Virus record (IMG/VR): IMGVR_UViG_3300006065_000007
Coordinates: 84,459 to 136,948 of that record
Direction: 5' to 3' (one strand)
Length of the DNA: 52,490 nt
Source of the DNA: a virus
Under the pieces are notes generated by a model that was not told the origin of the DNA, made no database searches, and saw nothing but the letters and a program-made list of their open reading frames with translations. Position numbers and translations under genes: made by a program. Numbering within the stretch: position 1 is the first letter of the stretch; each line of letters starts with the position of its first letter. Shown here piece by piece: positions 21,680 to 52,490 of this stretch.

Positions 21680-21882
21680 AATGTTTAATATTGATTATAA
21701 CGGTTGCAAATATTAAAAAGGATATGGTAAAGATGTTGAGGGTAGTATAATGAACTATGGTGAAATATGTAATTGTAATAGATATTTTCTTTGTGAACAT
21801 AGAATACAATGGATTGTGGACTTTATTAAGAAGAATTATGTATAACGGTTACAGATATATTTAGTTTTTTAATTATAATAAT

Positions 21883-22131
21883 ATGGAAGAAAAATATTTA
21901 GAACAATACAGAAACAACGGAATTAATTTTAATGAAACACAGGAAAAATTAAATATATCTGTTGTTATACAACGTTTGATTGAACGAAAAGAAAAATTGT
22001 TAAGAGATGTAGAATACTACGATTATTGTGTGAATGGAGGTGCTTATTTTCGTGAAGATGTTACTTATTACATTAGAACAATAAAGAGTAGATTAGTAGA
22101 GTTGGATTATCTTTTAGAAAATGTTGTCTAA
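21883..22131 (+). CDS. Cassette hypothetical protein starting inside the attC hairpin
   Basis: The frame reads through GTTATAC and its stop is part of GTCTAAC. Confidence 0.6.
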   Translation: MEEKYLEQYRNNGINFNETQEKLNISVVIQRLIERKEKLLRDVEYYDYCVNGGAYFREDVTYYIRTIKSRLVELDYLLENVV

Positions 22132-26194: not shown

Positions 26195-27136
26195 ATGAAA
26201 AGACAAAACGGAACAGAGACAAGTGCTTTCGGAACAAACGGAAGAATTAATCACGATAGTTCAAAATTTTACAACTCTAAATTATATTCAGAACTAGGGG
26301 ACAAAAAAGTACTTGATAAAAACGAAAATGATTTTCCCGATAAATTGGAGAATAAATTTATTCTTGGCTCTGCCGAGAATATGAAAGAATTGCCTGACAA
26401 TTCAGTTCATTTGATGATAACTTCACCGCCCTACAATGTTTCAAAAGAATATGATGAAGATTTATCTTTAAAAGAGTATTTACAACTTCTTGAAAATTCA
26501 TTTAAAGAAACTTACAGAGTGCTTGTTAATGGTGGTCGTGCTTGTATAAATGTCGCTAATCTTGGTAGAAAACCTTACATCCCTTTATCAGATTACATTT
26601 CAAAAATGATGTTAGATATTGGTTTTAATATGCGTGGTGAAATTATTTGGAATAAAGCAGCAAGTGCAAGTCCTTCGACAGCTTGGGGTAGTTGGCAAAG
26701 TGCTGCTAACCCAATTTTGAGAGACATACACGAATATATTTTAATTTTTTCTAAAGGCGATTATAAAAGAGAAAAAGGTAAAAAAGAAAACACCATTTCA
26801 AAAGAACAATTTATGGAATGGACAAAATCAATCTGGACAATGAATGCAGAGAGTGCAAGAAGAATTGGACACCCTGCACCATTTCCCGAAGAATTACCAA
26901 ATAGACTAATTCAACTTTATTCATTTAAAGGTGATATTATCTTAGACCCATTTATGGGTAGTGGAACAACTGCTGTTTCTGCTTTGAAGACTGATAGAAA
27001 ATTTGTAGGATATGACATAAGCAAAGAATATATTGACCTTGCAGAGAAAAGAATTGAACCGTTATTAAAACAAACAAAGATAGCATTTAACCTGACAGTA
27101 TTGGAAGAAGAGCCACAAACCGCTAACAAAGGCTAA
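26195..27136 (+). CDS. N4/N6 DNA methyltransferase (beta class)
   Basis: ITSPPYN, HPAPFP and LDPFMGSGTT. Confidence 0.9.
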   Translation: MKRQNGTETSAFGTNGRINHDSSKFYNSKLYSELGDKKVLDKNENDFPDKLENKFILGSAENMKELPDNSVHLMITSPPYNVSKEYDEDLSLKEYLQLLENSFKETYRVLVNGGRACINVANLGRKPYIPLSDYISKMMLDIGFNMRGEIIWNKAASASPSTAWGSWQSAANPILRDIHEYILIFSKGDYKREKGKKENTISKEQFMEWTKSIWTMNAESARRIGHPAPFPEELPNRLIQLYSFKGDIILDPFMGSGTTAVSALKTDRKFVGYDISKEYIDLAEKRIEPLLKQTKIAFNLTVLEEEPQTANKG

Positions 27137-27251
27137 AATCAAGCGGGCAGAAAGTGCTAATTTGAAGGGTATTGCATCTAATAAACTTCATCGTAAATTG
27201 ACAGTGAAGTTCTCCGAAATGCCCGCCAGCTTTTAGCCTCAACCGTTATGC
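27121..27251 (+). repeat. Canonically oriented attC site
   Basis: CGCTAAC-aa-AGGCTAAAA..GCGGGCA...TGCCCGC..TTTTAGCCT-caacc-GTTATGC, overlapping the MTase stop. Confidence 0.75.
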
Positions 27252-27499
27252 ACAAGTGGAAAAAAGACAACGACACAGTAAATTGACAATGAAAATGGAA
27301 TATTAACCCACATTGCAGGGTTTTCCTCAAAAAATGATAAAAAAGCTGTTAATAACCCGGAATTTATTAACAATGATCCAATTTGCAGAATAAATAACCT
27401 TTGATAATCAAGTGTTTGCGTTTTTAGGTTACTTGATTTTGTAAATGTTGTACCCCCGCTCTTGTTGCTGATTAACAAACAGTTGCATAGCTTTACGGC

Positions 27500-28531
27500 A
27501 TGTTTGTCAAGCCATATATTAAACATAACAAGACAACCGGTGAGCGTTACACGGTTTACAAGCTGGTTGAAGGTTGCCGTGTGAACGGACAGGTAACCCA
27601 CCGGATCATTGTAAGCTTTGGCCGGCTGGATGAACTGGACACTGATGACCGGAAAAAACTTTTGGGGCGGCGCGTGGAACAACTAATTGTAAATGGTGGC
27701 AACACACTTAGCATCAGCCAGGCCGACGGGCAGGTAGAAGAGCTTGCGCGCTATTATTACGAAGAGGTAAAAAAGAGAAGGCGGTACGATATAAAGCAGG
27801 GGAAAGCCGATTGGGAAACGGTCGATATGTCCACATTAAAGAACAAAGATGCCCGTGAGGTTGGGGCCGAATGGTTGTGCAGGCAAGCCTTTGACCAGTT
27901 GGGCATTGGTGGTTTTTTGCAGCAATCGGGATGGGACCAGCAGGAAATTGCGCTGGCTGCCACACATATCATCAGCAGGGCGGTATATCCGGCATCGGAA
28001 CTGAAAACTGTTTCATATATAAGGGAGAACTCAGCCATAAGCGAGATAACCGGGGTTGACAGGGAAAAGGTAACAAAGGACAAGCTCTACGGCATATCGC
28101 ATAAGCTTTACCAGATCAAAGACCCGATGGAGCAGTACTTGTCAAAGCGTACCAACGAGTTGTTCGACCTTGAGGACAAGATCATCCTATACGATTTGAC
28201 CAACACCTATTTTGAAGGCCGGATGCAGGGCAGCCGGGTAGCCAAATTTGGCCGCAGCAAAGAAAAGCGCAACGATGCCCGGATAGTGGTACTGGCCGTA
28301 GTGGTGAACCGTGAAGGGTTTTTAAAATACTCGAACATTTACCAGGGTAACATGGCCGATTGCAAGACACTGGAGGGGATAATCAATGCAATCAGCGCAC
28401 AAACATCTTTTTCACACCGCAAGCCTATCGTAGTGACCGATGCCGGTATTGCCACCGATGAAAACCTGCGAATGCTCAAGGGCAAAGGGTTTGAATACAT
28501 GTGTGTTTCACGCTCCTCGTTAAAAGAGTAA
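27500..28531 (+). mobile_element. IS1634-family transposase, C-terminally truncated
   Basis: LYDLTNTYFEG, FGRSKEKRND and VVTDAGI. GC content is visibly higher. It ends at the IS1595 boundary. Confidence 0.85.
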
Positions 28532-29534
28532 ATGATTATCGTATTCGATACCTAAATTCATTTTTTGATGTTACGCCAACAATAAGTAATCGATCAAAAA
28601 GAGCTTCGCCAAAATATCTCCTATTGAATTTATAGCAAAACTCATTCAGGTAGCCTTGCAAATATTCTGGTTTGATGTTATGGTGTATATCCAGGATCAT
28701 TCTTTTTGCATTGCTAATTGCCAGGTGTACCCATGGTAATATTTCCCCTACTTTTTCTTTGGGGATTACCTGTGGCTGATGCATTGAAACAAGGTTACCC
28801 AAATCCCTGTAAGAAGTAGAATCATCCGTGATCAAAGTTGATCCGGGTGAAACATTTGCACTGACCTGCTCATTTATGGTGCCAGCTTTAAGGTCCGGGA
28901 TTACCTGCATCTTAATAAACCCCACCTTCCGTGGTTTACCCTTTTTTGACTGTTCTCCTTCGACCTTCTTGCTTTCAGCCATTACCAAAACTTTGGTCTT
29001 CTTTTGGCTACCCCTTCCCCGCTTCCTTGGTTTATACTTTTCTTCAGGTTTTATTTCGGTTGAGAAAAAGCCTTCATCCAACTCAATCTGACCGGAAAGT
29101 ATATATTGAGAATCTCTTTTACCCATCGCTATTCTGAGTTTATGCAGCATTGTCCAGATAGGCTCGTAGTATTTATGCCCTAATTGCCTCTGTAATTCCA
29201 ATGCTGAAAAACTCTTCTTCGTTGACGTTAGAAGGTGCATGGCAACAAACCAATAACGAAAAGGCAATTGGGAACCATGCATAATTGTACCACTTCGTAA
29301 AGTCGTCCTTGTTTTGCATTTTTTACATTCATATTGCCACTTGTCCCTTTTCCAATAATGGTCAGTGCAGCCACACCGTCTGCATATAACCCCTTCCTTG
29401 TCCCTGATTGCCTTCAGCTTCAATTTGCAGCTCTCTTCATCGGGGTATTGGCTGATAAAATTAAGCAAGTTCATATCCCATGTAGTTTAATGACCTTAAA
29501 GATAATACAATTAGGCACAATATACGATATACAT
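28532..29534 (-). mobile_element. IS1595-family element; transposase at 28536-29474
   Basis: Zinc ribbon CRRC..CKKC, IELDE, LITDD and YLNEFCYKFNRR. Imperfect terminal IRs ATGATTATCGTAT / ATACGATATACAT. Confidence 0.85.
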
Positions 29535-36875: not shown

Positions 36876-36974
36876 AATTGCCAATTAAGTTTCGGATAAA
36901 AGTGGATCCGGTTGAGAATTGCCAATTAAGTTTCGGATAAAAGTGGATCCGGTTGAGAATTGCCAATTAAGTTT
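36876..36974. repeat. 41-bp tandem repeat, about 2.4 copies
   Basis: AATTGCCAATTAAGTTTCGGATAAAAGTGGATCCGGTTGAG at 36876 and 36917, partial at 36958. Confidence 0.92.
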
Positions 36975-37402
36975 TAGGATTAGGTATATTAGTACCAGAA
37001 TAGTTTATTATTTTATTATTAACAAGATTGAATAATGAAATTAATAATTGGACAATCAGGTTATAAAAGAGTATTAATAATATAATAGGTAACATAATAA
37101 TAGTAATAATAACACCAACTAAAGACATAAAAAAGTTAAATATGTTCATATTGATAAAAGTTTAAAAATTTCAATACAAGATAATATAAAGATACCGATA
37201 AAGATTAATTTTAATGGTACGATACCTAGATAAAGAATTTTCTCCAGTGTATTTTGAGGTTTAGATTTTACGTTATGTAAAATACCGATAAGAGAAAGAA
37301 TAATAATAGTAAATAATAGAAGTAGTTCAAATAAAATTTCCATAGTAAATATAACCCCCTTTTTCTAATAAATATAAGAAAAAGGGGATTAAAAAACAAG
37401 GA

Positions 37403-37933
37403 TTAGTCATCAAAATATTCGTCGTTAATAAATTTGATTTTAAATGATACTACTTTATCGTCTTTTTTAGCAATATAAAGGTCATACGACCCATCTCCGT
37501 ATCCTGACGTAGATACAACACCATGTTCGATTACTCCCCATGAATCGGGTTCATTTATGGTTAAAGAACAAATTTTGCTATACCATTTATTCCCGTCATT
37601 TTTGGGATATTCATCATCGAACGCTGGTTCGATGTCATACGAATCAGAATCATCATCGTTTCTATAGTGGTTTATATCGAATATACCAGCTTGTCCAGAA
37701 TCTACACCGATAGTAAAAGGGGTATTTTGGTAATACAAATCATCGGATTTATGGTTAACGTGAGTGGCGACAAATTCAGCAACTCGTCTTCCCCAACCTT
37801 GGTCTTTAGCTTTAATTATGTTAGCGATATATTCACCGGGTAATACATCATTAAGAACACCCTGACACCACGTACCTAATTTATAACAAGGGTCAGATAC
37901 AACTACTGTTTCACCTAATTTAAATTTTTTCAT
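37403..37933 (-). CDS. DUF4241-like protein
   Basis: VSDPCY, IGVDSGQAGIFD and STSGYGDGSY. Confidence 0.65.
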   Translation of the reverse strand: MKKFKLGETVVVSDPCYKLGTWCQGVLNDVLPGEYIANIIKAKDQGWGRRVAEFVATHVNHKSDDLYYQNTPFTIGVDSGQAGIFDINHYRNDDDSDSYDIEPAFDDEYPKNDGNKWYSKICSLTINEPDSWGVIEHGVVSTSGYGDGSYDLYIAKKDDKVVSFKIKFINDEYFDD

Positions 37934-37971
37934 TATTAAGAATTTAAAATGTTATACAAAGATAAAAGAAA

Positions 37972-38778
37972 TTAATCAAAAATAAAAGATAATTCTCTAT
38001 GTGTCTGACATAAAATGTCTTTACATAATTTATCAGGAATAGAGCTACGTTCAAGATACGATTTATGTTTAACGACCCCTTTAGGTTGTTTTTTATGATC
38101 ATATCTTTGTTGAAAAGTATCGGAATGATGGCAAGTATTTGTTTTACTTTTCTTAGGGCACCATTTAAGGTTAAGTTTTAAATTGCTAAAGATACTTGTT
38201 TCTTTACGATATTGTGAACCATATTTGCAATAGGTTGTAATATTTTCGTAAAAAGTTGGTATCAATTTTTTGAGATAAAACCTCATATAACCGGTAGCGG
38301 GATTTTCGATAAAATAAATAAGGTTAGGATTTTGAACCTGGTAGTGGTTAATGATATCGACAGTTTTAATTAGGATATCGGTGTGGGTAATTCTTTTTCG
38401 AATTATTCTATCAGGATATTTAAGTCTTTTATCAATGGTAAAATTGGTTCTAGGTTTAATATCTACAACTTTGCCATTTAACTTTATGGATTCCCAGTAT
38501 CTATTTCCACCTCCTTTCATAGCGGTTACAATGCTCCATGTTTCGCAAGGTGGTGAAGCCCAAATAACATCGGGAATAAACCCATTGATGTCTTCAGGGT
38601 TGAATTGAAGAATATCAATGGGTATATCAATGTGATCTAGGTTTAGAATGTCCAATGATTTAACATGGTAACCCAGATTTTTTGCCATTTTACTTATGCA
38701 ACCGGATCCATCGAACAGGACTAGAATCTTTTTCTGTTCATGTTTCATCAAGTAGTTATCAAATAATTTATTAAACAT
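37972..38778 (-). CDS. Orphan C5-cytosine DNA methyltransferase-like protein
   Basis: Motif I LFDGSG, motif IV WASPPC, motif VI IENP, and QYRKET. Confidence 0.75.
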   Translation of the reverse strand: MFNKLFDNYLMKHEQKKILVLFDGSGCISKMAKNLGYHVKSLDILNLDHIDIPIDILQFNPEDINGFIPDVIWASPPCETWSIVTAMKGGGNRYWESIKLNGKVVDIKPRTNFTIDKRLKYPDRIIRKRITHTDILIKTVDIINHYQVQNPNLIYFIENPATGYMRFYLKKLIPTFYENITTYCKYGSQYRKETSIFSNLKLNLKWCPKKSKTNTCHHSDTFQQRYDHKKQPKGVVKHKSYLERSSIPDKLCKDILCQTHRELSFIFD

Positions 38779-39319
38779 TTTGATAGATGTAATTAAATTT
38801 TTGTAAAGTTTTTTCTATTTCATTGGACATTGCAACATGAAGTTTTTTAATAGCACTATCCACTAGATTTTGGTTTTTATAAAGTTCATTCATATCGTCA
38901 CCTAAATCTGTAGTTTTTCCGGCGATAATTCTGATATCTTTGATATCGTTTTTTTTTCTATAGAATATAGATCTAGCATAGATGTATTCACGTGAAATAG
39001 CGAATTTCATTTCTGATTGGATCATTTCACGACATCTTAATTGAATTATTAGTTCTTCAATTTGAGATAGTTCAACAAGCACATCTTCGATTGATTTAAC
39101 GTTCAACAGATAGTGTTGTTTGATAGAATTCAGTTGATCAGATTCTTGAATAGATAAAAGCATATCGGTATTCAAAAATTTGTCATACGCGTGTGGTTTC
39201 ATAGAATCCCCTATAATGTTTCCAAAAACCATTGTTAATAATTTATTGCTTCTTGACATAATAAATAATTTTTTTAAACAAAATAAAAGGGGGAAAATTC
39301 CCCCTAATTGGTAATACAA
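38771..39319 (-). CDS. Hypothetical protein
   Basis: ORF overlapping the next gene; likely start MSRSNK. Confidence 0.6.
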   Translation of the reverse strand: MYYQLGGIFPLLFCLKKLFIMSRSNKLLTMVFGNIIGDSMKPHAYDKFLNTDMLLSIQESDQLNSIKQHYLLNVKSIEDVLVELSQIEELIIQLRCREMIQSEMKFAISREYIYARSIFYRKKNDIKDIRIIAGKTTDLGDDMNELYKNQNLVDSAIKKLHVAMSNEIEKTLQKFNYIYQNV

Positions 39320-39660
39320 TTATTTTTTAAAATTCTTCATCATCTTCATTGTGTTCACAAATTTTTATGAAATCCTCTTCAGATGGTAGTTCAGAGAAAT
39401 TGAAAACGTGTTGTTTATTCCAGTTAACGGTAAAGGTTTTATTATCCAGGTCGACACAATAAGTACCTTCGCAGAATAGTCCATCTATTTCAAAAGATTT
39501 TGAATCTTGTAACCAAATAACATCATCAGTTGAATCATTGATGATATTTAAAATATCGGCACCATGATCTCTTGAAAAATTAGGATACTGTGACCGCTAG
39601 GATAGTGGTACCATTGTCCATATTGAGCTACTTTTATTTCACCCTTATGTATTACTTTGG

Positions 39661-39972
39661 TTAACCCTCTTGTTCCCATACGTCTGTGGTATTAAATTGT
39701 TTTTGAACTTCGTCCAGAATAGTACATAAATCCTCAACCGAATAAGAATTTATGTCACCCTCTATTTCAGTACCAATTTCGTCTTTAGCGACTACTTTGC
39801 CGAAGTTGTGAATTTCCACAATGGAATCTTCACAAATTACAAATGGATTTTCACTAAAATCCATAAAATCCTTACCCTCACAATTAGATAGAATTTCCTC
39901 AACCAATAAGGTTTTCAATTCTTTAATTTTTTCTGTAAAATACATAATTTTAAATTTTAAATTGTTATACAA
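39661..39972 (-). CDS. Hypothetical early protein
   Basis: Lies behind a TATCTTTG promoter; likely start MYFTEK. Confidence 0.6.
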   Translation of the reverse strand: MYNNLKFKIMYFTEKIKELKTLLVEEILSNCEGKDFMDFSENPFVICEDSIVEIHNFGKVVAKDEIGTEIEGDINSYSVEDLCTILDEVQKQFNTTDVWEQEG

Positions 39973-40302
39973 AGATAATAGTTTTTTTTAATTATACCAA
40001 AAAAATAAAACTTTATTTAGTTTTTATTTTTGAAATACCATTTTATAAATTCTATAACATAATAATAAGCAGTTTGAATATCGACACTTATATACATTCC
40101 CATTTTTATTTTTTGTTTATACAAAGATAATTCTTTTTTATGAATGTACCAAATATTTTCGATATTTTTTTTACGCGGACTGAAGGTTAAAAACTTAAAT
40201 GGCAAATGTAATACGAATCGCCATTTAAGTTTTGAATCCAGATGATCTATATCTGGTTGATTAAAGCAAAAAAAAGGTGTTCATTTTGAACACCCTCTTT
40301 TT

Positions 40303-41061
40303 TTATTGAATAACAAATTTATTATCAGTAGTTAGTTTGTTTCTAACTTTTTTAAACTTTAACCCGACAATAACATTTTTGGGGTCTAAGTATCTCATAT
40401 CATATAAGTCACCGTTAATTACTTTAAACCCGTTGAAAGTTTCAGGTACATTTTTAAATACCATAGCTACACGAATATTATTATTTAACATTTTAATACA
40501 TTTATCCATATTGTAACCGTTATATGAATAAGTTACATCGTAGTTAGGATATTTTTTCATTAGTTCTACTCTACCAGAAATTTTAGTATAGTCATAAAAT
40601 TGAACATCTGGAAACAATTGTAATACGTTTTTTCGTTTACCATTTATTTTAGTATAAATTGTTTCGGGTGAAATATCCGACGTATTATTTAAACGAACAC
40701 TAAAACGTAAGCCCAATTTATTAGCTCTATTTTTAGCTCGGTTAATTTCACTAATAACCCAATTACAAAAAAATGAATGATGTTCAAAATACAACCGGGT
40801 CTTTTTAATTCTACAAATATTAATACGGTTACTTTTATTAGACCGGTTACGACCTGACTCATTTAAACACATAGCGGTACACTCATCGGTACGTACAGAA
40901 CATACTTCATATCCACTCATATTAGCCGGAGAAAGATAAATACTATAAACCATTTCATTATATTTCTTCGCTTTCTCATGTTTGGTTGAGTTATTAACCT
41001 TACCTAAATAAGTAACACCTGATAATTTTCTCGCTAGTTTTAACGTTGTAAATTCATACAT
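40303..41061 (-). CDS. GP88-like phage protein
   Basis: C..C...CL Cys cluster, VRLNNTSD, QFYDYTK and GDLYDMRYLDP..IVGLKFK. Confidence 0.7.
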   Translation of the reverse strand: MYEFTTLKLARKLSGVTYLGKVNNSTKHEKAKKYNEMVYSIYLSPANMSGYEVCSVRTDECTAMCLNESGRNRSNKSNRINICRIKKTRLYFEHHSFFCNWVISEINRAKNRANKLGLRFSVRLNNTSDISPETIYTKINGKRKNVLQLFPDVQFYDYTKISGRVELMKKYPNYDVTYSYNGYNMDKCIKMLNNNIRVAMVFKNVPETFNGFKVINGDLYDMRYLDPKNVIVGLKFKKVRNKLTTDNKFVIQ

Positions 41062-41292
41062 ATTCTATATTTTTTTTTTGTTTTACAATACAAAGATAAT
41101 ACTTTTTTATTAAACCGCCAAATATTTTTTCTTTTTTTTTTATTTACTGAAGTGGGACTGAAGGGTTAAAACTTAAATGGCAAGTTAAATTTTGCCAATT
41201 AAGTTTTGTGACCTGAAGACAAAATAAGATGGTTATAACAAAAAAAAAGGTATCCATTTCTGAATACCTTTTGTAAATTACAAATTGTGTGA

Positions 41293-41832
41293 TTATTCAA
41301 CTAAATCAAAGAAAATTTCTTTTCCTTTACGGGGTTTAGTTGTTTGCATAATAACCCTGTTGCGAGCCCACGTACCAATTAAAGGATGCTGTTTGCGATA
41401 GTCACCACCGCCTCGTCCGTTACCCTCACAAGTTAATAAAGGTAAAGGGTGAATACGATACTCATAATCTTCATATATTTTAGTAACAGGTACTTTTTTC
41501 AAATCAACCCATTCATTTTTATCCAGGTTAACCAGATACTTTAATTTTCCGTCATACTCTGGTACAGTTGGTTTAATGTTATTTTCGTGAACCATAGAAT
41601 AAATGTTACCGATTTCTTCGCCTTGCTCGTTCAGTTCGTTATCTGCATAATCGCCAGCCCAAACAATACGGTCACCGAACCATTTTCCACCTTTTGAAAT
41701 AAGACGTTCAACCACATTCACAAAATTGTTACCAATCCAGGAATGTTCCATTAGTTTCAATCCGTTACTAAAATCGTGTGAATACACACTTTCCATTTTA
41801 TCCAACGAAGTTGGCATGTAATACTGACCCAT
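41293..41832 (-). CDS. Hypothetical phage protein (MGQYY...)
   Basis: ORF with its own promoter and terminator. Confidence 0.7.
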   Translation of the reverse strand: MGQYYMPTSLDKMESVYSHDFSNGLKLMEHSWIGNNFVNVVERLISKGGKWFGDRIVWAGDYADNELNEQGEEIGNIYSMVHENNIKPTVPEYDGKLKYLVNLDKNEWVDLKKVPVTKIYEDYEYRIHPLPLLTCEGNGRGGGDYRKQHPLIGTWARNRVIMQTTKPRKGKEIFFDLVE

Positions 41833-41908
41833 AATTTTTAAGTTTTAAATTGTTTATACAAAGATAATTCATTTATATGAAATTACCAAATAAATTGACA
41901 ATTATTTT

Positions 41909-42403
41909 TTAAATTACTTGATTAATAATAAAATGAGGTACATTTTGTTTTATGATTTCTTTATATAAAGCGGATTTCATAAACATTGATAGAGGTTCAT
42001 GTCCGAAAATACTTTTTGGTTCTATTTCTCTGTAAAATATTACACCAGTTTCGTTTATTACATCTATGTATGTAGAATAATTTAAACCTTTGGTATCAAC
42101 AAGTAAATTACTTAATTCAGCAATTTCTTTTAAACCCTCAGTTACGGTGAAAGTAGCCACGTAATTTCTTCCATCTTTTAAAACATAGTAACTAAAATCA
42201 ATACCATTTATAGTTGCGGTATTATCTTCACCCTCACTTATTTCACAATCTAAATATTTTCCTGTTGCTTTTCCATTAAACGACCAGTGACCCATACCAT
42301 AACTAACACCAGTTAATTTAGGGTGAATTTCTTTTACATCTTTAAAAAGTTCAATGATTCTAGATATAATTGGTACTGCAATCATTGCTTCTTTTTTTTT
42401 CAA
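41909..42403 (-). CDS. Hypothetical protein
   Basis: ORF behind the promoter at about 42476. Confidence 0.6.
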   Translation of the reverse strand: MKKKEAMIAVPIISRIIELFKDVKEIHPKLTGVSYGMGHWSFNGKATGKYLDCEISEGEDNTATINGIDFSYYVLKDGRNYVATFTVTEGLKEIAELSNLLVDTKGLNYSTYIDVINETGVIFYREIEPKSIFGHEPLSMFMKSALYKEIIKQNVPHFIINQVI

Positions 42404-42855
42404 TAAGTTTATAAACTTTTTGTTTTTCCTTTTTTAAATCAAATTTTTTCATTTCTATAAGTTTTAAATTGTATATACAAAGATAAATGTTTTATATGAA
42501 ATAACCAATTATTTTAATTGTTTCAGCTCCGGATCCAAGGTTTTAAATATTAATTGGCAATTATTTTTGCCAATTAAGTTTCTTGAAAGGCCCCAATCCG
42601 CATTATTAATGTAAAAAAAAAGGTGTTCATTTCTGAACACCTTTTTTAATATGAATATTATACTTTTTTCATTAAAACATCATATTCTTGAATTATTTCA
42701 AAAATTTCATCAATTATGGAATCCGGTAAATCTTCATATAAATATCTGTTTGCTGAAAGTTCAATTTCATCCTGGTAAGTAATTGTTCTAACATCGAATA
42801 AATTGAAAGTTTCAATCAATTCTGAAATATTATTTCAATCTTATCTTCCTTAATA

Positions 42856-43372
42856 TTAAAAAAAATGAATAGGTGGTACATAATCTTTTGGTTGAAGTTG
42901 AATAACAGCATCTTCATCCGATTCGTTTAAATCAACTGAAAATAAATCTTTTGTTTCTACATCTTGTACATAGTACTGCCGGTTGTCGCCCGGGTCTTGT
43001 AACCATTTTTCAACTTCCTTTGCAGCACCAAATGGAGAATCTTCCTGGATTGAAATTTCAAAAACAACATTATACGTTTTCATAATTTTAAAATTTATTA
43101 CCGTTAATACTTTCAATGTCCAAAGACAAAAATAATTCCTCTAAACCTAGTTTTTCAACTTCTGATTTTAATAATGTTTGTATTACATTATCTTTTACAT
43201 AGATATACCATTTAGGTTTTGCTTTATTAATTAAAACATCAATATCCATATAAGGTACATTAACATTTACTGTTACTCTCCTTATATATCTAACTGAACC
43301 TACCTCAACATAATGAGAAACAAGTCTTTTTATTTCTACATGTGTTACTTGACTACGATTTAAAACTTTCAT
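42856..43372 (-). CDS. Two small hypothetical proteins (43088-43372 and 42856-43116)
   Basis: Adjacent ORFs behind the promoter at about 43396. Confidence 0.55.
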
Positions 43373-43420
43373 GTCTTTTTATTTAATGTTACAATACAAA
43401 GATAATACATTAATATTAAT

Positions 43421-44017
43421 TTACCAAAACATTGAAAATTTTTTTTCTTCTTTTCGAGCAAGTTCACATCTGTATCTACACCAACTTTCCTGATAATCAC
43501 AACGTTTACCATATTTGCGGTGTAATTTTTTCATTTCATCAATATTATCAGCAGAAATAAAATCCCATATATCATGCCATACACAATTCCATCGTTGACC
43601 TTTTGGTGGAATCCATGTAAAAGCATCCGCGTGAATTATGGTAACCCGTGGATCTTGGTATGATGGGGCAACCAATTTAATCACATCCTCAGAATTTTCA
43701 ATTACTGTGATATGGTCAATTTTTCTTTTCCCATCCTTTTCCAATAACATTTTAACGGTTGTACCCAACCCTAAACCATTAATCAAAACCGTACCATGAG
43801 CATAATTATAAAACGGAATAAAATCTGAAATTTCATCCGGTGTATTACTCATAACAATTGTGTTTTTTCTCATTAGTCGTTTATATATACCAGCCGGTAC
43901 ACTACGACCATATTTCATAGCAGAAATCATTTGTGAAAAATCTTCTTTTGGAACTGTAAAAGTTTCCACTCTCCAATCTCCCGAAACACCATCTGGTACA
44001 TCAATATATACATTCAT
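43421..44017 (-). CDS. Class I SAM-dependent methyltransferase (spermidine-synthase-like fold)
   Basis: VLINGLGLG, TVIENSEDVI, IIHADAF and WHDIW. Confidence 0.75.
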   Translation of the reverse strand: MNVYIDVPDGVSGDWRVETFTVPKEDFSQMISAMKYGRSVPAGIYKRLMRKNTIVMSNTPDEISDFIPFYNYAHGTVLINGLGLGTTVKMLLEKDGKRKIDHITVIENSEDVIKLVAPSYQDPRVTIIHADAFTWIPPKGQRWNCVWHDIWDFISADNIDEMKKLHRKYGKRCDYQESWCRYRCELARKEEKKFSMFW

Positions 44018-44142
44018 AATAAACGTTTTAAATTATAATACAAAGATAATACATTTATTTTAAACCACCAAATTATTTCTGAAGAATTTGATGACGGGGC
44101 TGAAGGTTGATAAAGTTAATTGGCAATAAAATAAAACACATA

Positions 44143-44645
44143 AAAAAACCTTTGTATTACCATCCCAATCGGACAAGGGTACAAAGGTCTAAAATTCTAT
44201 ACTCCGAGTTTTTTATCTACCTCTTAACGTATTACCTAGGTAAATAGGTATAAGTAACCATCTCGTTAAAAGTCTTTTGGGTATTGTCACACTTATTTTA
44301 ATCATGTGTCATAAACATTGTGTAACACCCTCACGTTTATCCAAGTTCCTAAACTCATAGTTACGTGAGTTTCTTACTCATTGGTTAGAGTAACCACAAT
44401 GGATACAAACGCTACTCTCCATTGCTTGTGTCATTATTTACCCCATAGAGCTTTACTTCCCACACGACACAAAAAGAAGGTTGATAACCGCAACTTTACG
44501 TCTTTACTAATACAACAGCACTGATTTCTATAATAAGAAGATCATCTTTGATATCCTTACACGTAAGGACTTTGAATAGTGTTACATTCAATCTCAGAGT
44601 CTAATCCCCGGTGGGTTTAACCATCGTATTTTCAACAATTTCATA
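44143..44645 (-). ncRNA. Candidate ~500-nt structured ncRNA
   Basis: ORF-free, with a promoter TATATTTG at about 44650, a terminal hairpin plus T-run at about 44143-44187, and many internal hairpins. Confidence 0.55.
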
Positions 44646-45198
44646 ATACAAATATACAAAATAAAATTCAAAAAAACAAATTAAACACTAAAAGTTTCTA
44701 CTAACATTGACCTCAATAACTCGTCATCTTCAGTATAAAAAGAATTGTCTTTTGGAACGTAATACAGAATTTCTTCATATTCTATACAATCGTGATTATC
44801 CATGTACATTTCTACTGAAGCTTCATCTTCATTTTCCGGTACTCTTACACAGTAGTTCTTTAAAAATTTTGATTAATTTTTTTAACATGATTATAAAATT
44901 TAAGTTGTTTTTGCCAAATAAGTTTAAAATTGAAGCAACCCCTTGTGTTTGGGTTTTCTGTAATACGTTTTATTTGTACGATGAACCTTGTGAATAGATT
45001 TCCACCCATTTTCAAATGAAAGTTCAGCATCTCTACTTCCTTTTCTATTCGCTTTCACATAATCCATTGTTTTCATTTTATTTATTTCTCAAATTTGTTT
45101 TTTTAATTAATTCATTGTGCAATTTTTCTTGCTTAATTGTTTCACCAGGTTTTCCTAGTATATTGTTATACCTTTGGTTAGGTATCAAAATCGGATTT

Positions 45199-45420
45199 TT
45201 ATTCTTTTTTTTCATAACAACAATTTTTAAATTTTTTTCCAGAACCACATGAACAAATATCATTCCTTTGTATTTTAGGGTTTACCTTACTGTCACGTAC
45301 TGGTTTAACCTCATAACCCCGCAATTTTTTAGGTACATCAGGTAAATCAATATCATATACCGGAGGTATATATATTTTCCCAAACGGATAAATTAAACTT
45401 TCAACTATACCTTTCATCAT
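45199..45420 (-). CDS. SEC-C motif protein
   Basis: KIQRNDICSCGSGKKFKNCC. Confidence 0.8.
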   Translation of the reverse strand: MMKGIVESLIYPFGKIYIPPVYDIDLPDVPKKLRGYEVKPVRDSKVNPKIQRNDICSCGSGKKFKNCCYEKKE

Positions 45421-46135
45421 TCCAAAATATTAAATTCATATCATACATAAATTTTTTTAAAATTTCACTCATTTTTCCAATATATAAAAGTTAATATTGT
45501 TGTAAGAATTACCACACCCAAAAATATTTTACTTTCAAGTAAAAGGTTTTCATTTTTTTATAAAAACTACGGCTATAAACCGACCAATAAAAACCCCCAA
45601 TATCGTAAATACTAAATTTTTAACTTTCATCTTAAATATGTTTTTGAATGTTTTTTTACAATTTCTTTGTGTTAAATTTCACGTTTTAATTCAATTTTTT
45701 TGATTAGTCTCATATATTTTTTGTTTTTATACACAATATATAAATAATCAAAAATTTGATAACCAAACGAACCAATAGAAAGTGAAATTACTGTTGATTT
45801 ATTAAATTCACCCTCCAATAAATAAAATAATATCGCAAGAATTAATACTGTAATAGTACTAATAATAAATCTCGTAAATAAAGAAACTTGTGTTTTCATT
45901 TTATATTTCTATTTATACAAAGATAATTGTTTTATTTATGTTTTATTTAAATACACCAAATTATTTTAAACTTTTTTTCTGAAGAATTTGATGACGGGGC
46001 TGAAGTTACAGAAAGTTAATTGGCAAACCATATTACAATTGCCAATTAAGTTTTTGGTGCGAAGACGAGATTCATCGAAAAAAAAAACCCCTGACTTTCG
46101 CCAGAGGTTTAATGAACTTTAAATAAAATCTATAA

Positions 46136-46969
46136 CTAAACTAAAACAGACAATTCATTCCAAATGTGTCTTTCTTTTCTACCTGCAACCCCTAAAATTT
46201 TACTTTTGGAATTATCAGTACTTTTCATTGAATGTGTGGTATAACGTGTAACCGCTGAAAATAAACCCCAAAGATTGTCACCTTTTGTCGATACCTCAGT
46301 TTGAAAATCAAAATCAAACTTTTTAATCAAATTTAATTTTCTGGTCGATAAATCCTCCAACCTTTCCTCAGCCTTAATGTCAAACAGATAGTCAACAACC
46401 AATTTCTTAACCTCAGGCGTTATTTTTACATCATTGAATTTATCAATGGTATTGAAAATTTTTCTTTCCTCAACCAATAAAAAATCAATTTGTTTTAAAA
46501 TTTCATCAATTCGTGGTCTCATGTTCTGTGAATGTCTCAATTTTTCGTCAAGTAAATTGTACCCTCTCCAGAATGAATTTCTACACGATATGGTGAAATA
46601 ATAATTACCAAAAGCCAATGATGTTGAACCATCAAATGAATTTAAACCAGTTATATAACCTTTGATTGTGTCACCCCCGATATTGTGATCATTTGATTTT
46701 AATTGAAAAAATACCTTTTCACCACCATCAAACATACCGCCAGAATGAAATGATAAACCGGTTTTATTCGTTATTTTAAATAACAAATCAAGCAACTCCT
46801 CATTTTGATAAGGGTCATAATTTTTGGAATGAACCCCCAAAACTTGGCTTGTATCCTCACGAACTAATGCCATTCGACTGGGTATTTCTAACCCAGATAC
46901 GGTCTTAATGTTCTCAGAAATAACTTTCCAATTCAGACCACTTTTTTCTAAAATCTCTAATTGTGTCAT
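46136..46969 (-). CDS. DUF932 (LGT_TIGR03299-like) phage/plasmid protein
   Basis: GLNWKV, YQNEE, NSFDGSTS, SCRN, LRHS and LWGLFSAVTRYTTH. Confidence 0.8.
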   Translation of the reverse strand: MTQLEILEKSGLNWKVISENIKTVSGLEIPSRMALVREDTSQVLGVHSKNYDPYQNEELLDLLFKITNKTGLSFHSGGMFDGGEKVFFQLKSNDHNIGGDTIKGYITGLNSFDGSTSLAFGNYYFTISCRNSFWRGYNLLDEKLRHSQNMRPRIDEILKQIDFLLVEERKIFNTIDKFNDVKITPEVKKLVVDYLFDIKAEERLEDLSTRKLNLIKKFDFDFQTEVSTKGDNLWGLFSAVTRYTTHSMKSTDNSKSKILGVAGRKERHIWNELSVLV

Positions 46970-47022
46970 ACGTTTTAATTTTAAAGTTTATACTACAAAT
47001 ACTTTAACAATTCACCAAATTT

Positions 47023-47280
47023 TTAATCCAAATAAATAATAAATTTTGAACCCATTGGAAAAAATAAAAACATCCTATTATCTAACATAGCAAAAGCCTC
47101 ATCATTTTTTAAAACCAATTCTTTTGCCTTGCGAATTACTTCTATTTTATTGTTTTTTAATGTCACATCTCTAACACTAGACTCAAACTTGAATATAAAT
47201 TTATTCATCTTTTCACTTAATTCCTTATCTTCAACCAATAAGATAAGTTTCTCTTTGTATGTTACTCTTATATAAACCAT
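47023..47280 (-). CDS. Hypothetical protein
   Basis: ORF behind the promoter at about 47303. Confidence 0.55.
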   Translation of the reverse strand: MVYIRVTYKEKLILLVEDKELSEKMNKFIFKFESSVRDVTLKNNKIEVIRKAKELVLKNDEAFAMLDNRMFLFFPMGSKFIIYLD

Positions 47281-47760
47281 AGCTTTTAATTTTTAAGTTC
47301 ATTACAAAGATAATACATTTATTTTAAACTACCAAATAATTTTTGATTTTTTTTTCGACGGGAATGGAGCTAAAGTCAAAAACTTAATTGGCAATCGTAA
47401 TACAATGTTTAATATTGCCAATTAAGTTTCAATTTTTTTCAGGGAAGTCCATCAATCTTAAAATTACAACCGATTTTATCTTTCCATTTAATGTAATGTT
47501 TTTTAATTTGTTCAACAACCCATTTAGGGTCAGCTATAATATTCTTATTTTTAAATGTTTATCATTCAAAACTATCAAAGCCCTATTTAGTTCAATATTC
47601 ATATCTGATAATAACTCTTTATTAGTATTACGTTTATAATTAAGAATTTCCATCATGTAAGGAATGGCTTCTTTATAATCCGATATAATAGACAAAATAG
47701 TTTTTCTCTGATATTCTTCAGGAAGTTCAGTATTTAAAATTTCTTTTATTTAAATTCATT

Positions 47761-48321
47761 TCAATCTTCTATTTGTAGTTCAGCTTCTCTCATACAATCT
47801 TCTTTATCATCATACCCGAAACATGAACCAATATATTCTTTTGTACCATCTTCGTTTTTTTTGCTTATTATATAACCATAACTTTCACCGTTGAGATATT
47901 TGTCAAAAGTTTTAACCTCACCTATTAATATATTTTCTACTTTCTTTCTTATTTCTTTTGTGATACGTTTTACTCCGTATTCTTTACGAACATCTTCTTT
48001 TGTAGCGAATATAAATCCAATTTGACCACTATCCCAAGGACAACTAAAACCAGTCGTATTTATTGTTATTCCACTATGATCATAAATATAAACAGGTAAA
48101 ATAACACAAACTTTCTCATCTTTTATTAGTGTTTGTTTAAATTCGCCCCATCCATTATAATACATAGGGTTATATGTGTGTTTGTCACCCAAGTTATATT
48201 TCCTATGAAAACAATACATTTTTCCTAAATTACAATCTTCTCTAGGGTTACACGGATTTTCATCGATTACAATTTCAATTATATAACCGTTTACTTTCTT
48301 TTTTAAAACTACATTTTTCAT
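47761..48321 (-). CDS. Hypothetical phage protein
   Basis: LPVYIYDHSGITI..CPWDSGQIG; behind the promoter at about 48344. Confidence 0.7.
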   Translation of the reverse strand: MKNVVLKKKVNGYIIEIVIDENPCNPREDCNLGKMYCFHRKYNLGDKHTYNPMYYNGWGEFKQTLIKDEKVCVILPVYIYDHSGITINTTGFSCPWDSGQIGFIFATKEDVRKEYGVKRITKEIRKKVENILIGEVKTFDKYLNGESYGYIISKKNEDGTKEYIGSCFGYDDKEDCMREAELQIED

Positions 48322-49196
48322 TGTTCTTATTTTTAAAGTTCATTACAAAGATAATACATTTATTTTAAACTACCAAATAATTTTTGATTTTTTTTTTCGA
48401 CGGGAATGGAGCTAAAGTCAAAAACTTAATTGGCAATCGTAATACGGTTTACCAATTAACTTTCATTACTCACAATACTCTCTAACGTAACTCATATTTA
48501 CTCTAGTAATACTCTAAACTCTAAAAATAATAAAACCAAAAATCTTTTGGGATCAGAAGACCGGTTAAAATCTTAAATGGCAAATACAACCTTTAAAAAA
48601 AAAAGACCCGATGATTAACCATCAGGTCTTTTTAATGAATAAAATGTTTAAACTGAAAAACCGATTAAATCTTAGGTACAAATATAGTTATTTTATTATT
48701 ACGTTCTATCATTTCACGTAAAAAAAAAATAAAAATATCTAAAATATTCATTTTTTTTCATGTTGTATTGACTTTTTTTTATTAAATAATAAATCTGATT
48801 CGTTGATAACAATCCACATTTAATCAAATCATCAATAGGTTTCTTCTGTACATAGATATTCTAATAAACAAAAATCATTCGACCACACACAAAGTTACAC
48901 TTTTTCTTCGTATTCCATAACGTATCTAATTTGAATAATTTCATTTATTATTATCTTTTCCATAGTATAAAGATAATCTTTTTTATTAATCTACCCAAAT
49001 TTTTCACGAATAATTTGATGACTGTAGGTCAAAAACTTAATTGGCAATCGGTATTACGATTGCCAATTAACTTTCATTTTTTTTGAGCTACGTATAACAA
49101 CCGATATAAACAATTATTTTTCATTATATATACAATCGTAATACAAAAAAAAACCCCTGACTTTCGCCAGAGGTTCGTTGAACATTAAACAAAACA

Positions 49197-50168
49197 TTAT
49201 GAATAAACTAATGATTGTAACTTCTCAACCGTTGATTTTAAATCTTTAACATCACAAATTTTGTGAAACTTTTGATTTTCGTATGACCAATCACAACCAT
49301 TTATAATTTCACCCAAACAATTTAAATAAATTTGACTTTCTTCAAAATCATCTAAAGATTCTATTGTATTTATAAAATTTTCTCGACCCATTCTAGATCG
49401 ACCCTCTTTTATTAAACTAATACCATGTTATAGCCAATTAAAAGTGCGTACACGTTTCAGCTGTTCGTTAAATTTGCAAGGGCAATAATAATCAGAGCAT
49501 TCAACTTTTGGATTACCTGCTGCACAATCAATACAACGCCCTTTCATCCAAGTATCGCCTTCAAATTTAACTTTCTTAAATTGTAATCTCCAAAATATTC
49601 GTTTTATCAGTTTCATAATTAAATAATTAACTGGCTATAACAAGCAATATAAAACAGTTGCCAGAAAACTGCATCATATTTTGAAACGTCTTATAAGGCA
49701 ACCGTTTCATATTGCCGACCGATAATAATCGAAATTATTTTTTTCAAATTTAAATTTAAAAAAAGACAAACCAGATAATAATGAAATATCATAATCACAT
49801 TCATATGAATGATAAATGTCATTTGATACATCAACAGAACAAAATTCTTTCTCATCACAATATGAATACATTTTTAAACAAAATAAGATAAATTCCTCTG
49901 TTATTTTAACACCATTAGTTGCGATATAAAAAGAACTAATTGGAATATTTAATTCTTTTACCCTATTCAAAAAATAATTCATAATAAGTACATTTAATGT
50001 CGGTTCACCACCTGTAAACGTTACGGTACTAATACTGTCAACCTGAATTAAAAGTTGATCAATGTAAACCTTTGAAATATTTTTATTCATCGGTTCACCC
50101 CTCAAACAATGTTCACACATTATGTTACATTTTCGAGTTACTTCAATCATTAAATTTCTAATTTCCAT
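49197..50168 (-). pseudogene. Radical SAM protein split by a cassette insertion
   Basis: CNIMCEHC, FTGGEP and ATNG in the 5' part. HGISLIKEGR..IYLNCLGEIINGCD continues in the same frame beyond the 294-bp insert. Confidence 0.8.
49428..49721 (+). mobile_element. Single integron-like cassette (attC 49635-49721 on +; ORF 49428-49616 on -)
   Basis: G^TTATAGCCA...TGGCTATAAC-aa-GCAATAT..GTTGCC...GGCAAC..ATATTGC-cgacc-G^ATAAT. Confidence 0.8.
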
Positions 50169-51041
50169 TTTGTTTTATTTTAATGTTCTATACAAAGATA
50201 AAACTTTTTTTATTATATAATCAAATTTTTTATCGGAATTAAATTGATTTTTTTTTCGGGAATTAAGTTCCAGGGGACTGAAGTTTCATAAACTTAATTG
50301 GCAAGTATAATACGGATTGCCAATTAACTTTTTGTTTTTTCTCTCTGGTCCTTCTTTAGGTTATTTCTGTTTCTCGGTACAATATATTTTTATCGTCTCG
50401 GTTTATTAATTAATTTTTTGCCAATTAAGTTTTTGGCACGAAGACAAAAAAAATCCCCAGTAACGAATTACTGGGGTAATCGTCAGGATACCTAACACCA
50501 TACCAACCATCCTGACTAATTTGTAAATTCTTTAGTTTCCAACATTTAAATATTCAACTCTTTGATATATATAATTCCAGAATCTACAAACTATCTAAAT
50601 ATAATATATTTTTTTAAAAAAATCAAGTCTATTGCCATTTTATTTTTAAATTTTAATCTAGATAAGGATTGTTGCGCACAAAAAAAAAGCCTCGATATCA
50701 CATCGAAGCTTTTTATAAAACACAAAACAAGTAATTAACAAAACACAAAACAACCTAACAAATATGACCAATAAAAAAAATATAACTGAAATGAAAAAAT
50801 CTTTTTTATTTGTATTGTAATACAATTTTATTTCTTTATACATGACCATAATTTAAATATAATAAAATAATACTGAAAGAACAATAAAAACCACACCTAT
50901 TAATTTTAAACCAAAATGTATTAAAATACACCCAATCGTGAATATTGGAAATAAAAATAAACCAATAACCATTAATATTATCTGAACTATCGACATAACT
51001 TTAAATTTTAAATATTACACTACAAAGATAATACTTTTTTA

Positions 51042-51293
51042 TTAACCTACAACACTTTTATACTTTAAATAATACACATTTGAAACTTTTTTTTCAACAT
51101 AAAATTCAAAAAAAGCATCTGACCTTGGATGAATGTTTTCTACATGAATTATTTTCAATGGTTCATTCTCATAAACAAACTCCTCTATAACTTCATGTTT
51201 TTTAAAATGTTCTTGTAACGACTTCAAACACATTTTGTAAAAATCTACACCTAATCTGTATTTAACACTTTCGTTTAAAATAAATTTCATCAT
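51042..51293 (-). CDS. Hypothetical protein
   Basis: ORF behind the promoter at about 51315. Confidence 0.55.
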   Translation of the reverse strand: MMKFILNESVKYRLGVDFYKMCLKSLQEHFKKHEVIEEFVYENEPLKIIHVENIHPRSDAFFEFYVEKKVSNVYYLKYKSVVG

Positions 51294-51692
51294 ATCAAGT
51301 ATTTTAAAGTATAGTACAAAGATAAATGTTTTTTATAAATCTACCAAATTTTTTATTGGAATTAATTGATTTTTTTTTTCGGGAATTAAGTTCCAGGAGA
51401 CTGAAGGTACATAAACTTAATTGACAAATGTAATACCGATTGCCAATTAACTTTCGTAATTGACTATCTTCTACTACTGACCTAAACCCTCAGAAGTAAA
51501 TGGGTGTAAATCACGGTCATAAAAATTTTTTTTTTCGGGAATTAAGTTCCAGGAGACTGAAGGTACATAAACTTAATTGGCAAATGTAATACCGATTGCC
51601 AATTAACTTTTTGATCGCTATCCAGATCCGGATCGTTAAAACAAAAAAAAAGAGACTTTTCAGTCTCTTTCTTCTTTCACTTTCAACAGATT

Positions 51693-52223
51693 TTATACCT
51701 TGACGTATTTTATACCATTCAAAGTAAAAGAAACAATGTTTTCAATTTTCGGTGTGATAACCATTACTTTTCTTTCCTGTTCTTGTTTTTTGGATTCGGA
51801 AACCTTAACCATGTAGTCTTGAAATAATTGTTTTTCAATGGGGTTTCCATCCATTAAAAATTCAACTTTTGGTTGTACTTCGTCGAAACGTTCAACCATT
51901 AAATAAAATGTAGTTCCTGTTTTGTCATCGACCAATACACACGGTGAAACATGATTTTTACCACTTGGTTTTTCAACCTGAAAAGTATCAGGGTTTAAAC
52001 CTTCTTTTTCCATGTTACTTCTGACCCGTTTTTCGTAGTTAACGCCTGTTAAATAATTCGTGGAAGATAGTTTTTTAACCTTACCATAAAACGGATTATT
52101 TGTTTTGTTCATCCTTACATCTGTAAGGGTTACAACGTTTATAAAAGTTCCGTTATCAACGGTCTTTAAAACTTCTACCATTTCAGGTAATGAAACATTT
52201 ACGATTTGTTTTTCAGTTTTCAT
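51693..52223 (-). CDS. Hypothetical phage protein
   Basis: ORF with a promoter at about 52253 and a terminator AAGAGACT-TTTC-AGTCTCTT at about 51650. Confidence 0.7.
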   Translation of the reverse strand: MKTEKQIVNVSLPEMVEVLKTVDNGTFINVVTLTDVRMNKTNNPFYGKVKKLSSTNYLTGVNYEKRVRSNMEKEGLNPDTFQVEKPSGKNHVSPCVLVDDKTGTTFYLMVERFDEVQPKVEFLMDGNPIEKQLFQDYMVKVSESKKQEQERKVMVITPKIENIVSFTLNGIKYVKV

Positions 52224-52490
52224 AATGTTATTTTTTTAACGTTAAACATACCACAAAGATAAGGATTTATTTTAAACCACCAAACAATTTTAAAAAAAAA
52301 AGATTATTTTTTCTACTAAAATTTCCCCTTTATATTTGAAACTTAAATGGCAAATTTAACACATTAGATTATTTGAATTTTAAGACCATTTTAAGACCAC
52401 AAGATTAAAAACCTTATTCCGTATCGACTTTATTTAAAAAGTTCTTAAATACCCCCCATATACCCCCGTATAGGGTATATACCCCCTACC

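Follow-up and report, generated by a model that had tools for sequence, protein, structure and literature searches.

We observed that a 294-nt DNA cassette interrupts a radical SAM gene in a phage genome, and we interpret it as an integron-like cassette that entered a secondary site through site-specific recombination, a reading to which we assign a probability of about 80%. The window analysed here is a stretch of 52,490 nt from a 137-kb virus record (IMGVR_UViG_3300006065_000007, positions 84,459 to 136,948). Comparison with the same site in other genomes fixes the unit, its crossover point to within 1 nt and its mobility between phages, and the cassettes of this kind are widespread in phages of Bacteroidota. 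That an Xer/IntI-type enzyme recombined a folded single strand was not observed; it is inferred from association and geometry.

Interruption of the radical SAM gene

The two parts of the gene lie on the minus strand, on either side of the insert. The 5′ part (49722..50168, 149 codons) contains the cluster motif CNIMCEHC (CX3CX2C) and matches the Pfam families Radical_SAM (8.7e-8) and Fer4_12 (1.3e-5), both above their cut-offs. Its PF04055 score of 32.9 bits against a cut-off of 29.5 meets the criterion for membership of the superfamily, and it corresponds to PHROG 1802. No NCBIfam equivalog was reached at its cut-off by the full-length radical SAM homolog P0002. The 3′ part (49197..49427, 76 codons plus stop) is still open and conserved, and 294 nt separate the two open stretches. 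When the interrupted frame is followed from the 5′ part, it continues for four codons into the insert (RSAI) and then meets a stop at 49707.

As the earlier note had claimed, deletion of 49428-49721 (294 nt) joins CCATG|ATAAT and yields one 225-codon frame. However, 817 other deletions in the neighbourhood likewise leave an open frame, so restoration of the frame alone is weak and we did not count it as evidence. The decisive evidence comes from the alignment with intact homologs that the same note had proposed. Relatives of the protein are nearly all single proteins of ~210-250 aa (best 119 of 278 matches, E ≤ 0.001), with identities of up to 68%, and the closest homologs among the matches listed are single proteins of 225-233 aa, to which the 5′ part has 57-67% identity. 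Against these, both halves abut without a gap (..NNFDYY|HGISLIKEGRS versus ..DNFSYYGGSSLIKQGRS; alignment A1). The 3′ part aligns with the C-terminal third of the homologs and retains 14/14 near-invariant columns, that is, columns at least 90% conserved in A1. Because the homologs are single proteins and the halves align without a gap, we conclude that a normally single gene has been split by exactly 294 nt.

We considered whether the insert could instead be a self-splicing intron or another RNA-level element, or the gene a naturally split one, with the radical SAM protein still being made. The insert length is a multiple of three, the ORF within it lies on the strand of the gene and neither half has decayed, all of which would be compatible with such an arrangement. 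Yet no Rfam 15 intron or ribozyme family was found at E ≤ 1 in the interval searched (49000-50400), the frame is closed by the stop four codons into the insert, and the element is one of a family of intergenic cassettes whose cargos are unrelated. A natural split is further contradicted by the close radical SAM homologs, all of which are single proteins. We find this explanation barely tenable.

In its present form, the interrupted gene is probably inactive. No other damage is apparent. For the C-terminal part, which contains a conserved Cys-rich block, no separate start is evident ahead of its residue 13. The undecayed halves could reflect a recent event, a retained function of the pieces or a population that is still excising the cassette, and these cannot be told apart. 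They are also the sole basis, one of sequence alone, on which the cassette might be called recently mobile, as had been suggested. The further idea that excision serves as an “on-switch” of the gene is untested speculation and we consider it unlikely. Searches of viral contigs with the radical SAM protein confirmed no related phage loci, and blastn of 48-52 kb against GenBank phages gave no match. The empty-site allele was likewise not matched, either by an exact 23-mer in metagenome contigs or by a degenerate 35-mer in viral contigs; since the nearest homolog is only 68% identical, this null result is uninformative.

We also observed that the gene lies among short palindromes. The word TTAATTGGCAA occurs 29 times in window 36878-52353, against 4 copies expected, and the majority belong to short perfect palindromes, TTAATTGGCAA-N9-12-TTGCCAATTAA, between the genes of a minus-strand block. 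They flank the radical SAM gene on both sides (e.g. 49037-49070 and 50294-50327), have TTAATTGGC in common with the outer box of the cassette described below, and could be operators or terminators.

Anatomy of the unit and its crossover point

Read on the minus strand, the insert (49428..49721) is ordered as C-GGTCG, hairpin, TT, GTTATAGCCAGTTAA, the 62-aa ORF in sense orientation and TTAATTGGCTATAA; its plus-strand start is TTATAGCC, preceded by G. All of its features are placed on the minus strand. At the left junction stands CGGTCG (49716..49721), the central or spacer region, whose GTC forms a 3-nt bulge in the folded strand. Next to it, the hairpin (49644..49715) has arms at 49697-49715 and 49644-49662 and a 34-nt loop. 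Its stem of 19-20 bp is 89% complementary plus wobbles; two G.T pairs on the minus strand are A.C mismatches on the plus strand. The R′-like inner box GTTATAGCCAGTTAA (49627..49641) lies directly upstream of the cargo ORF (49428..49616), and the R″-like outer box TTAATTGGCTATAA(C) (49428..49441), complementary to the inner box, makes up the right end of the unit. A 16-nt inverted repeat (49426-49441 / 49627-49642) brackets the ORF, the unit ends in the TAA stop codon of the cargo, and the recombination site in the cassette is ~125 nt long.

The target reads CCATG^ATAAT on the plus strand, with its left half at 49423..49427 and its right half at 49722-49726. Since a C (G on the plus strand, at 49427 and at 49721) is common to donor and target, the position of the break is uncertain by one base, and the boundary may shift by 1 nt, to 49427-49720. 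A single cassette has been inserted without target duplication and with only a 1-nt overlap; the target is unlike att sites and has only TA-^C in common with the donor box. Integron integrases insert cassettes outside att sites at a GWT consensus (Loot et al., bioRxiv 10.1101/2022.09.11.507474), and the proposal that G^AT served as a secondary site here fits that consensus.

The ORF had been described as an antisense, Cys-rich frame of 62 aa followed by an attC hairpin at the end of the insert. The frame itself holds, and it contains the pattern GRCxxC..C..YYCPC, but it shares the strand of the interrupted gene and becomes antisense only when the plus strand is taken as the reading direction of the cassette. 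The position of the hairpin also holds, since a hairpin that comes first on the ORF strand becomes, on the opposite strand, an attC that comes last, with the ORF antisense. The ORF is a real gene: eleven homologs of the cargo, with 55-95% identity, share invariant Cys residues. It has no significant family match in Pfam or PHROG. Some of these homologs sit in ordinary, tightly packed phage operons. In homologs outside cassettes, the native C-terminus ..FKWLYK is encoded by TTTAAATGGTTATATAA (L005:515-590 versus window 49428-49445), which matches the outer box TTTAATTGGCTATAAC at 13/16 positions. Judging from this similarity, a pseudo-site at the 3′ end of the cargo gene itself may have served in its capture.

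An array at 18.8-22.5 kb of the window carries sites of the form xxxTAAC-GGTYG-stem..stem-TT-GTTAxxx on the plus strand, and each of its ORFs is flanked by complementary boxes. The lone insert shows the form TAAC-GGTYG-stem..stem-TT-GTTA only on the minus strand; with this shared form, it is confirmed as one complete unit of the same site family. Because boxes and hairpins alternate, the array alone cannot assign a hairpin to a gene or identify the exchange box. Its pattern, box x-ORF-box x′-hairpin-box y-ORF, fits one reading in which the hairpin belongs to the preceding ORF and the break lies in GTTA, and a second in which the hairpin belongs to the following ORF and the break lies in TAAC. 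Since the lone insert starts with the hairpin and ends with x′-TAA, it supports the second. The inference of array polarity from the lone insert, made in the earlier note, is logically sound, and the boundaries of same-site units in unrelated contexts agree with it. In an integron cassette the cargo ORF, on the top strand, would precede its attC; that arrangement is absent here, where the hairpin goes with the ORF that follows it in the ORF's own reading direction. The short boxes alone (GTTATAGCC, GTGCATAAC) occur in the window at chance level, so only the full structure is informative.

The same site is present in many other genomes. Exact searches retrieved the 19-nt hairpin arm GCAATATGAAACGGTTGCC from 40 IMG/VR contigs and the 17-nt inner box from 26; the chance matches expected for such searches are estimated at well under one, and all copies of the arm or inner box show the full structure. 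The 19-mer is also found in 5 Bacteroidota-type MAG contigs among GTDB genomes (11 matches). The other 6/11 GTDB matches, which include the only one in an isolate genome, lie inside unrelated genes and were set aside as chance matches (~4 expected). Upstream boxes comprise 25 distinct 8-mers and downstream boxes 11, TAGCCAGT being found 15 times; these numbers tie the hairpin to the box that follows it and not to the one before it. Downstream boxes co-vary with the loop variant.

We then have 15 same-site units, the window copy and 14 others, which measure 294-447 nt; their cargos, of 61-113 aa, include at least 12 that are unrelated to one another. Column conservation across them is 1.0 inside the site and 0.3-0.6 just left of TAA|C-GGTCG and right of ..GGCTATAAC, and the ends of the window insert coincide with those of the 14 other units. 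The left flank is TAA in all 15 units except the window copy, which has TAT^C (G^AT on the plus strand); as the sole exception, this copy is taken to occupy a secondary site. Two cassettes were each found in two contexts: L007 and L019 share 97% identity over 347 nt, their flanks only 30% and 33%, and the pair L022 and L029 likewise shows one cassette in two different contexts. A crossover at G^TT (TAA^C on the other strand), as previously inferred, is thereby supported, since the 15 units lose similarity exactly there and two cassettes each occur in two contexts. Both the insert junctions and the conservation boundaries of the 15 units place the break between G and TT to within 1 nt. In the first cassette pair, 3/5 spacer bases differ (GATTG versus GGACG) despite the 97% overall identity; either the bulge is unconstrained or some exchanges take place at the far side of the central region.

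These boundaries bear on the possibility that the insert arrived without site specificity, by illegitimate recombination or template switching at the hairpin, or is an assembly chimera, its integron-like ends being coincidental. No recombinase is encoded in the record, which would suit such an origin, and no read-level data were available. Against this, both ends match the ends of the 14 other units to the base and the insert is exactly one circularly closed unit, whereas a circle of 294 nt broken at random would open at the canonical position only about once in 300 times. We therefore regard a coincidental origin as very unlikely and retain site-specific insertion as the preferred reading.

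Several further local features were observed. A second lone site of the same family lies at window 27110-27252 in minus-strand polarity (TAAC-GGTTG-21-bp stem-TT-GTTAGCGG) and overlaps the last codons of an N6/N4-type methylase-like gene at 26195..27136 on the plus strand; no partner box was found for it. Within the array, one cargo ORF (21883..22131) has its start codon in the hairpin loop of a site and is read on across the 3′ arm; this site, at window 21843-21975, has the form TGTATAAC-GGTT-20-bp stem with a 72-nt loop. The segment 27400-29500 has 40-50% GC within a 29% GC phage, and its ORFs, by eye, look like an IS1634-family transposase (27500..28531, plus strand) and an IS1595-family transposase (28536..29474, minus strand).

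Folding strand and linked recombinase

To describe the folding of the site, we compared both strands of 117 distinct sites under a scoring scheme that treats G.T and A.C alike. The TAAC-GGTYG strand has 205 G.T wobbles versus 23 A.C mismatches. When the circular junction was rebuilt (DNA parameters), its sense strand folded at -26.7 kcal/mol into an outer stem of 16 bp and an inner stem of 20 bp with the 3-nt bulge GTC between them, and the antisense strand reached only -19.5 kcal/mol. The wobble excess and the fold energies show that the ORF-sense strand is the one selected to fold; whether the fold acts as DNA, RNA or both is not settled. An attC site was defined as R″(RYYYAAC)-L″-variable loop-L′-R′(GTTRRRY), an imperfect palindrome with extrahelical bases. 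The insert has the AAC and GTT triplets, the two stems, the 3-nt bulge and the 34-nt loop, and its CTATAAC/GTTATAG miss 2/4 degenerate positions. The break lies in the 5′ arm of the folding strand at AA^C, followed by a 5-nt spacer. In integrons, the attC bottom strand is cleaved at AAC (bioRxiv 10.1101/2022.09.11.507474); its geometry is the same as that of the phage folding strand, and the phage cargo is in that sense inverted. The cleaved strand and the chemistry in the phage are inferred from this analogy.

No tyrosine recombinase (PF00589) was found in this 137-kb record, which is estimated to be 44% complete. A PF00589 match is present in 6/36 other cassette-bearing virus records, and in 0/15 of the records that are at least 90% complete. 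Since neither this record nor those 15 contain one, the enzyme that acted here is unidentified. Where a recombinase is linked to an array, it has 266-279 aa, is co-oriented with the array and lies just beyond its end. In L062, L076 and L078 its gene starts ~35-50 nt after the TAAC of the last cassette, and in L059-L061 a co-oriented array lies within a few hundred nt upstream of it. These contexts count as six independent ones, because L077 shows the same place as L076. Between the last TAAC and the recombinase start there is a shared motif, TA(T/G)ATTATATAT (L062:1115-1160, L076:5950-6003, L078:5950-6003), which is a candidate for an attI-like primary site; a search of this genome for an attI-like motif returned AT-rich noise only.

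Profile comparison ranked XerA best for this recombinase, then XerD, IntI and XerC, all below curated cut-offs; on TIGR02249 it scored 151 bits in two stretches (cut-off 265). It aligns over its full length to Pyrococcus XerA (4a8e), and to VchIntIA (2a3v) only up to residue 181. Its length of 266-279 aa leaves no room for the IntI-specific insertion. The family comprises 4955 clusters at E ≤ 1e-40, with 76-93% identity among the best 120 of the 4955. The I2 helix is reported to be important for IntI (PMC7790495). An integron in the strict sense would encode an IntI with this specific insertion at its platform; there is none in this record, and the enzyme elsewhere is short and Xer-like. Since the linked recombinase is not an IntI and none is encoded here, we use the term “integron” only by analogy. 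The integron reading of the earlier note thus stands for the unit, the crossover and the secondary-site target, and not for a bona fide integron, as the recombinase lacks the IntI-specific insertion.

We also weighed whether a single-strand HUH transposase (Y1, IS200/IS605-type) could have inserted the cassette 3′ of a TAAC-like tetranucleotide beside a strand-specific hairpin. Such an enzyme would account for the absence of target duplication, for the strongly strand-specific folding, and for an insertion 3′ of TAAC (here TATC) with a unit that ends in TAAC. IS200/IS605 elements have two subterminal hairpins, whereas there is one hairpin per unit here. Moreover, Y1_Tnp was found in 1/37 cassette-bearing records and in 0/15 complete ones, whereas a tyrosine recombinase gene abuts or lies near array ends in six independent contexts. 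This explanation appears highly doubtful to us.

Under the preferred reading of site-specific recombination, the donor would be a circular cassette in which a folded recombination site of ~125 nt is joined to the gene of the 62-aa cargo. The site in this circle would read TTAATTGGCTATAA^C-GGTCG-(20-bp stem, 34-nt loop)-TT-GTTATAGCCAGTTAA, and it would be opened at TAA^C, the boundary of the outer box and the 6-nt central region; opening at this point would give the linear order hairpin, inner box, cargo ORF and outer box. Insertion would take place at G^AT of the plus strand, which reads TAT^C on the strand of the gene. The predicted circle junction is ..GGCTATAA^CGGTCG.. (that is, TTAATTGGCTATAA^CGGTCGGCAATATG), and the predicted empty site is ..TTAT^CATGG.. 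(that is, GATTATTAT^CATGGTATT). The putative catalyst would be a short tyrosine recombinase of the Xer/IntI superfamily, of the kind found at array ends in other large phages. It might be supplied in trans by the missing part of the genome, a co-infecting phage or the host, and would act on the folded ORF-sense strand as IntI does on the attC bottom strand.

Relation to known systems and meaning

Parts of this picture have been published. SALINs at attG sites (bioRxiv 10.1101/2022.09.11.507474) are lone cassettes at GWT sites in bacteria. They likewise consist of a single cassette with a folded attC-type site in a gene, with crossover at G^TT / AA^C, a GWT-type target (here GAT) and no target duplication; they differ in that the gene entered here belongs to a phage and the linked recombinase is not an IntI. 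For integrons, there are also reports of excision at the point of insertion. Compared with integrons in general, the phage cargo ORFs lie on the strand equivalent to the integron bottom strand, which places the hairpin before the ORF, and the outer and inner boxes pair over 15-16 nt versus 7 nt.

Integrase-less attC clusters in phages are also already known. CALINs and attC sites without an integrase were described in virulent phages, including a Polaribacter (Bacteroidota) phage, with methyltransferase cargos noted (Qi et al. 2023, PMC9892861); the sites were predicted with IntegronFinder and tested with IntI1. Our cassettes resemble these attC-like clusters without integrase in phage genomes. 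That study (PMC9892861) reports neither a gene split by an insertion nor the conserved family of sites, the inverted cargos and the Xer-like platform seen here. The open-access literature gave us no account of a phage gene that contains a cassette, nor of the site family, its cargo polarity or its Xer-like platform; this is not proof of novelty.

Two further systems share features with the phage cassettes. At the CTX-phi attP, Xer recombinases use a folded single-strand site, and the whole genome integrates at one dif via host XerCD. There too, a one-strand hairpin has two binding arms around a ~6-nt centre, an Xer-like enzyme acts, and the crossover lies at the arm/centre boundary after ..ATAA. 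In contrast, small cassettes stack here in arrays beside a dedicated short recombinase. The PeSL (promoter-early stem-loop) regulatory cassettes of T4-type phages, reportedly described by Arbiol et al. in 2010, are likewise said to be small accessory ORFs in hyperplastic regions of large phages, bracketed by conserved stem-loops. Their shuffling is reportedly thought to be homologous, between repeats, whereas the site here is non-homologous and the ends are base-exact.

A lone cassette in a well-conserved gene settles which gene owns the hairpin and which box is exchanged, and same-site units elsewhere agree. With the donor site, break point, natural secondary target and candidate recombinase defined, the cassette system is now directly testable. 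The route by which cassettes enter outside att sites is extended from bacterial chromosomes to phage genes, and the recombinase offers an I2-less relative of IntI for asking how recognition of single-strand sites evolved. Since the folded site precedes the cargo, each cassette may be a self-contained expression unit. In conclusion, we lean, with no great confidence, towards the view that phages of Bacteroidota run their own integron analogue, in which a short Xer-like recombinase without I2 lies beside an attI-like end and the folded site stands before its cargo. If so, the lone insertion would be a natural experiment that fixes the crossover point and shows entry into, and perhaps reversible switching of, ordinary phage genes.
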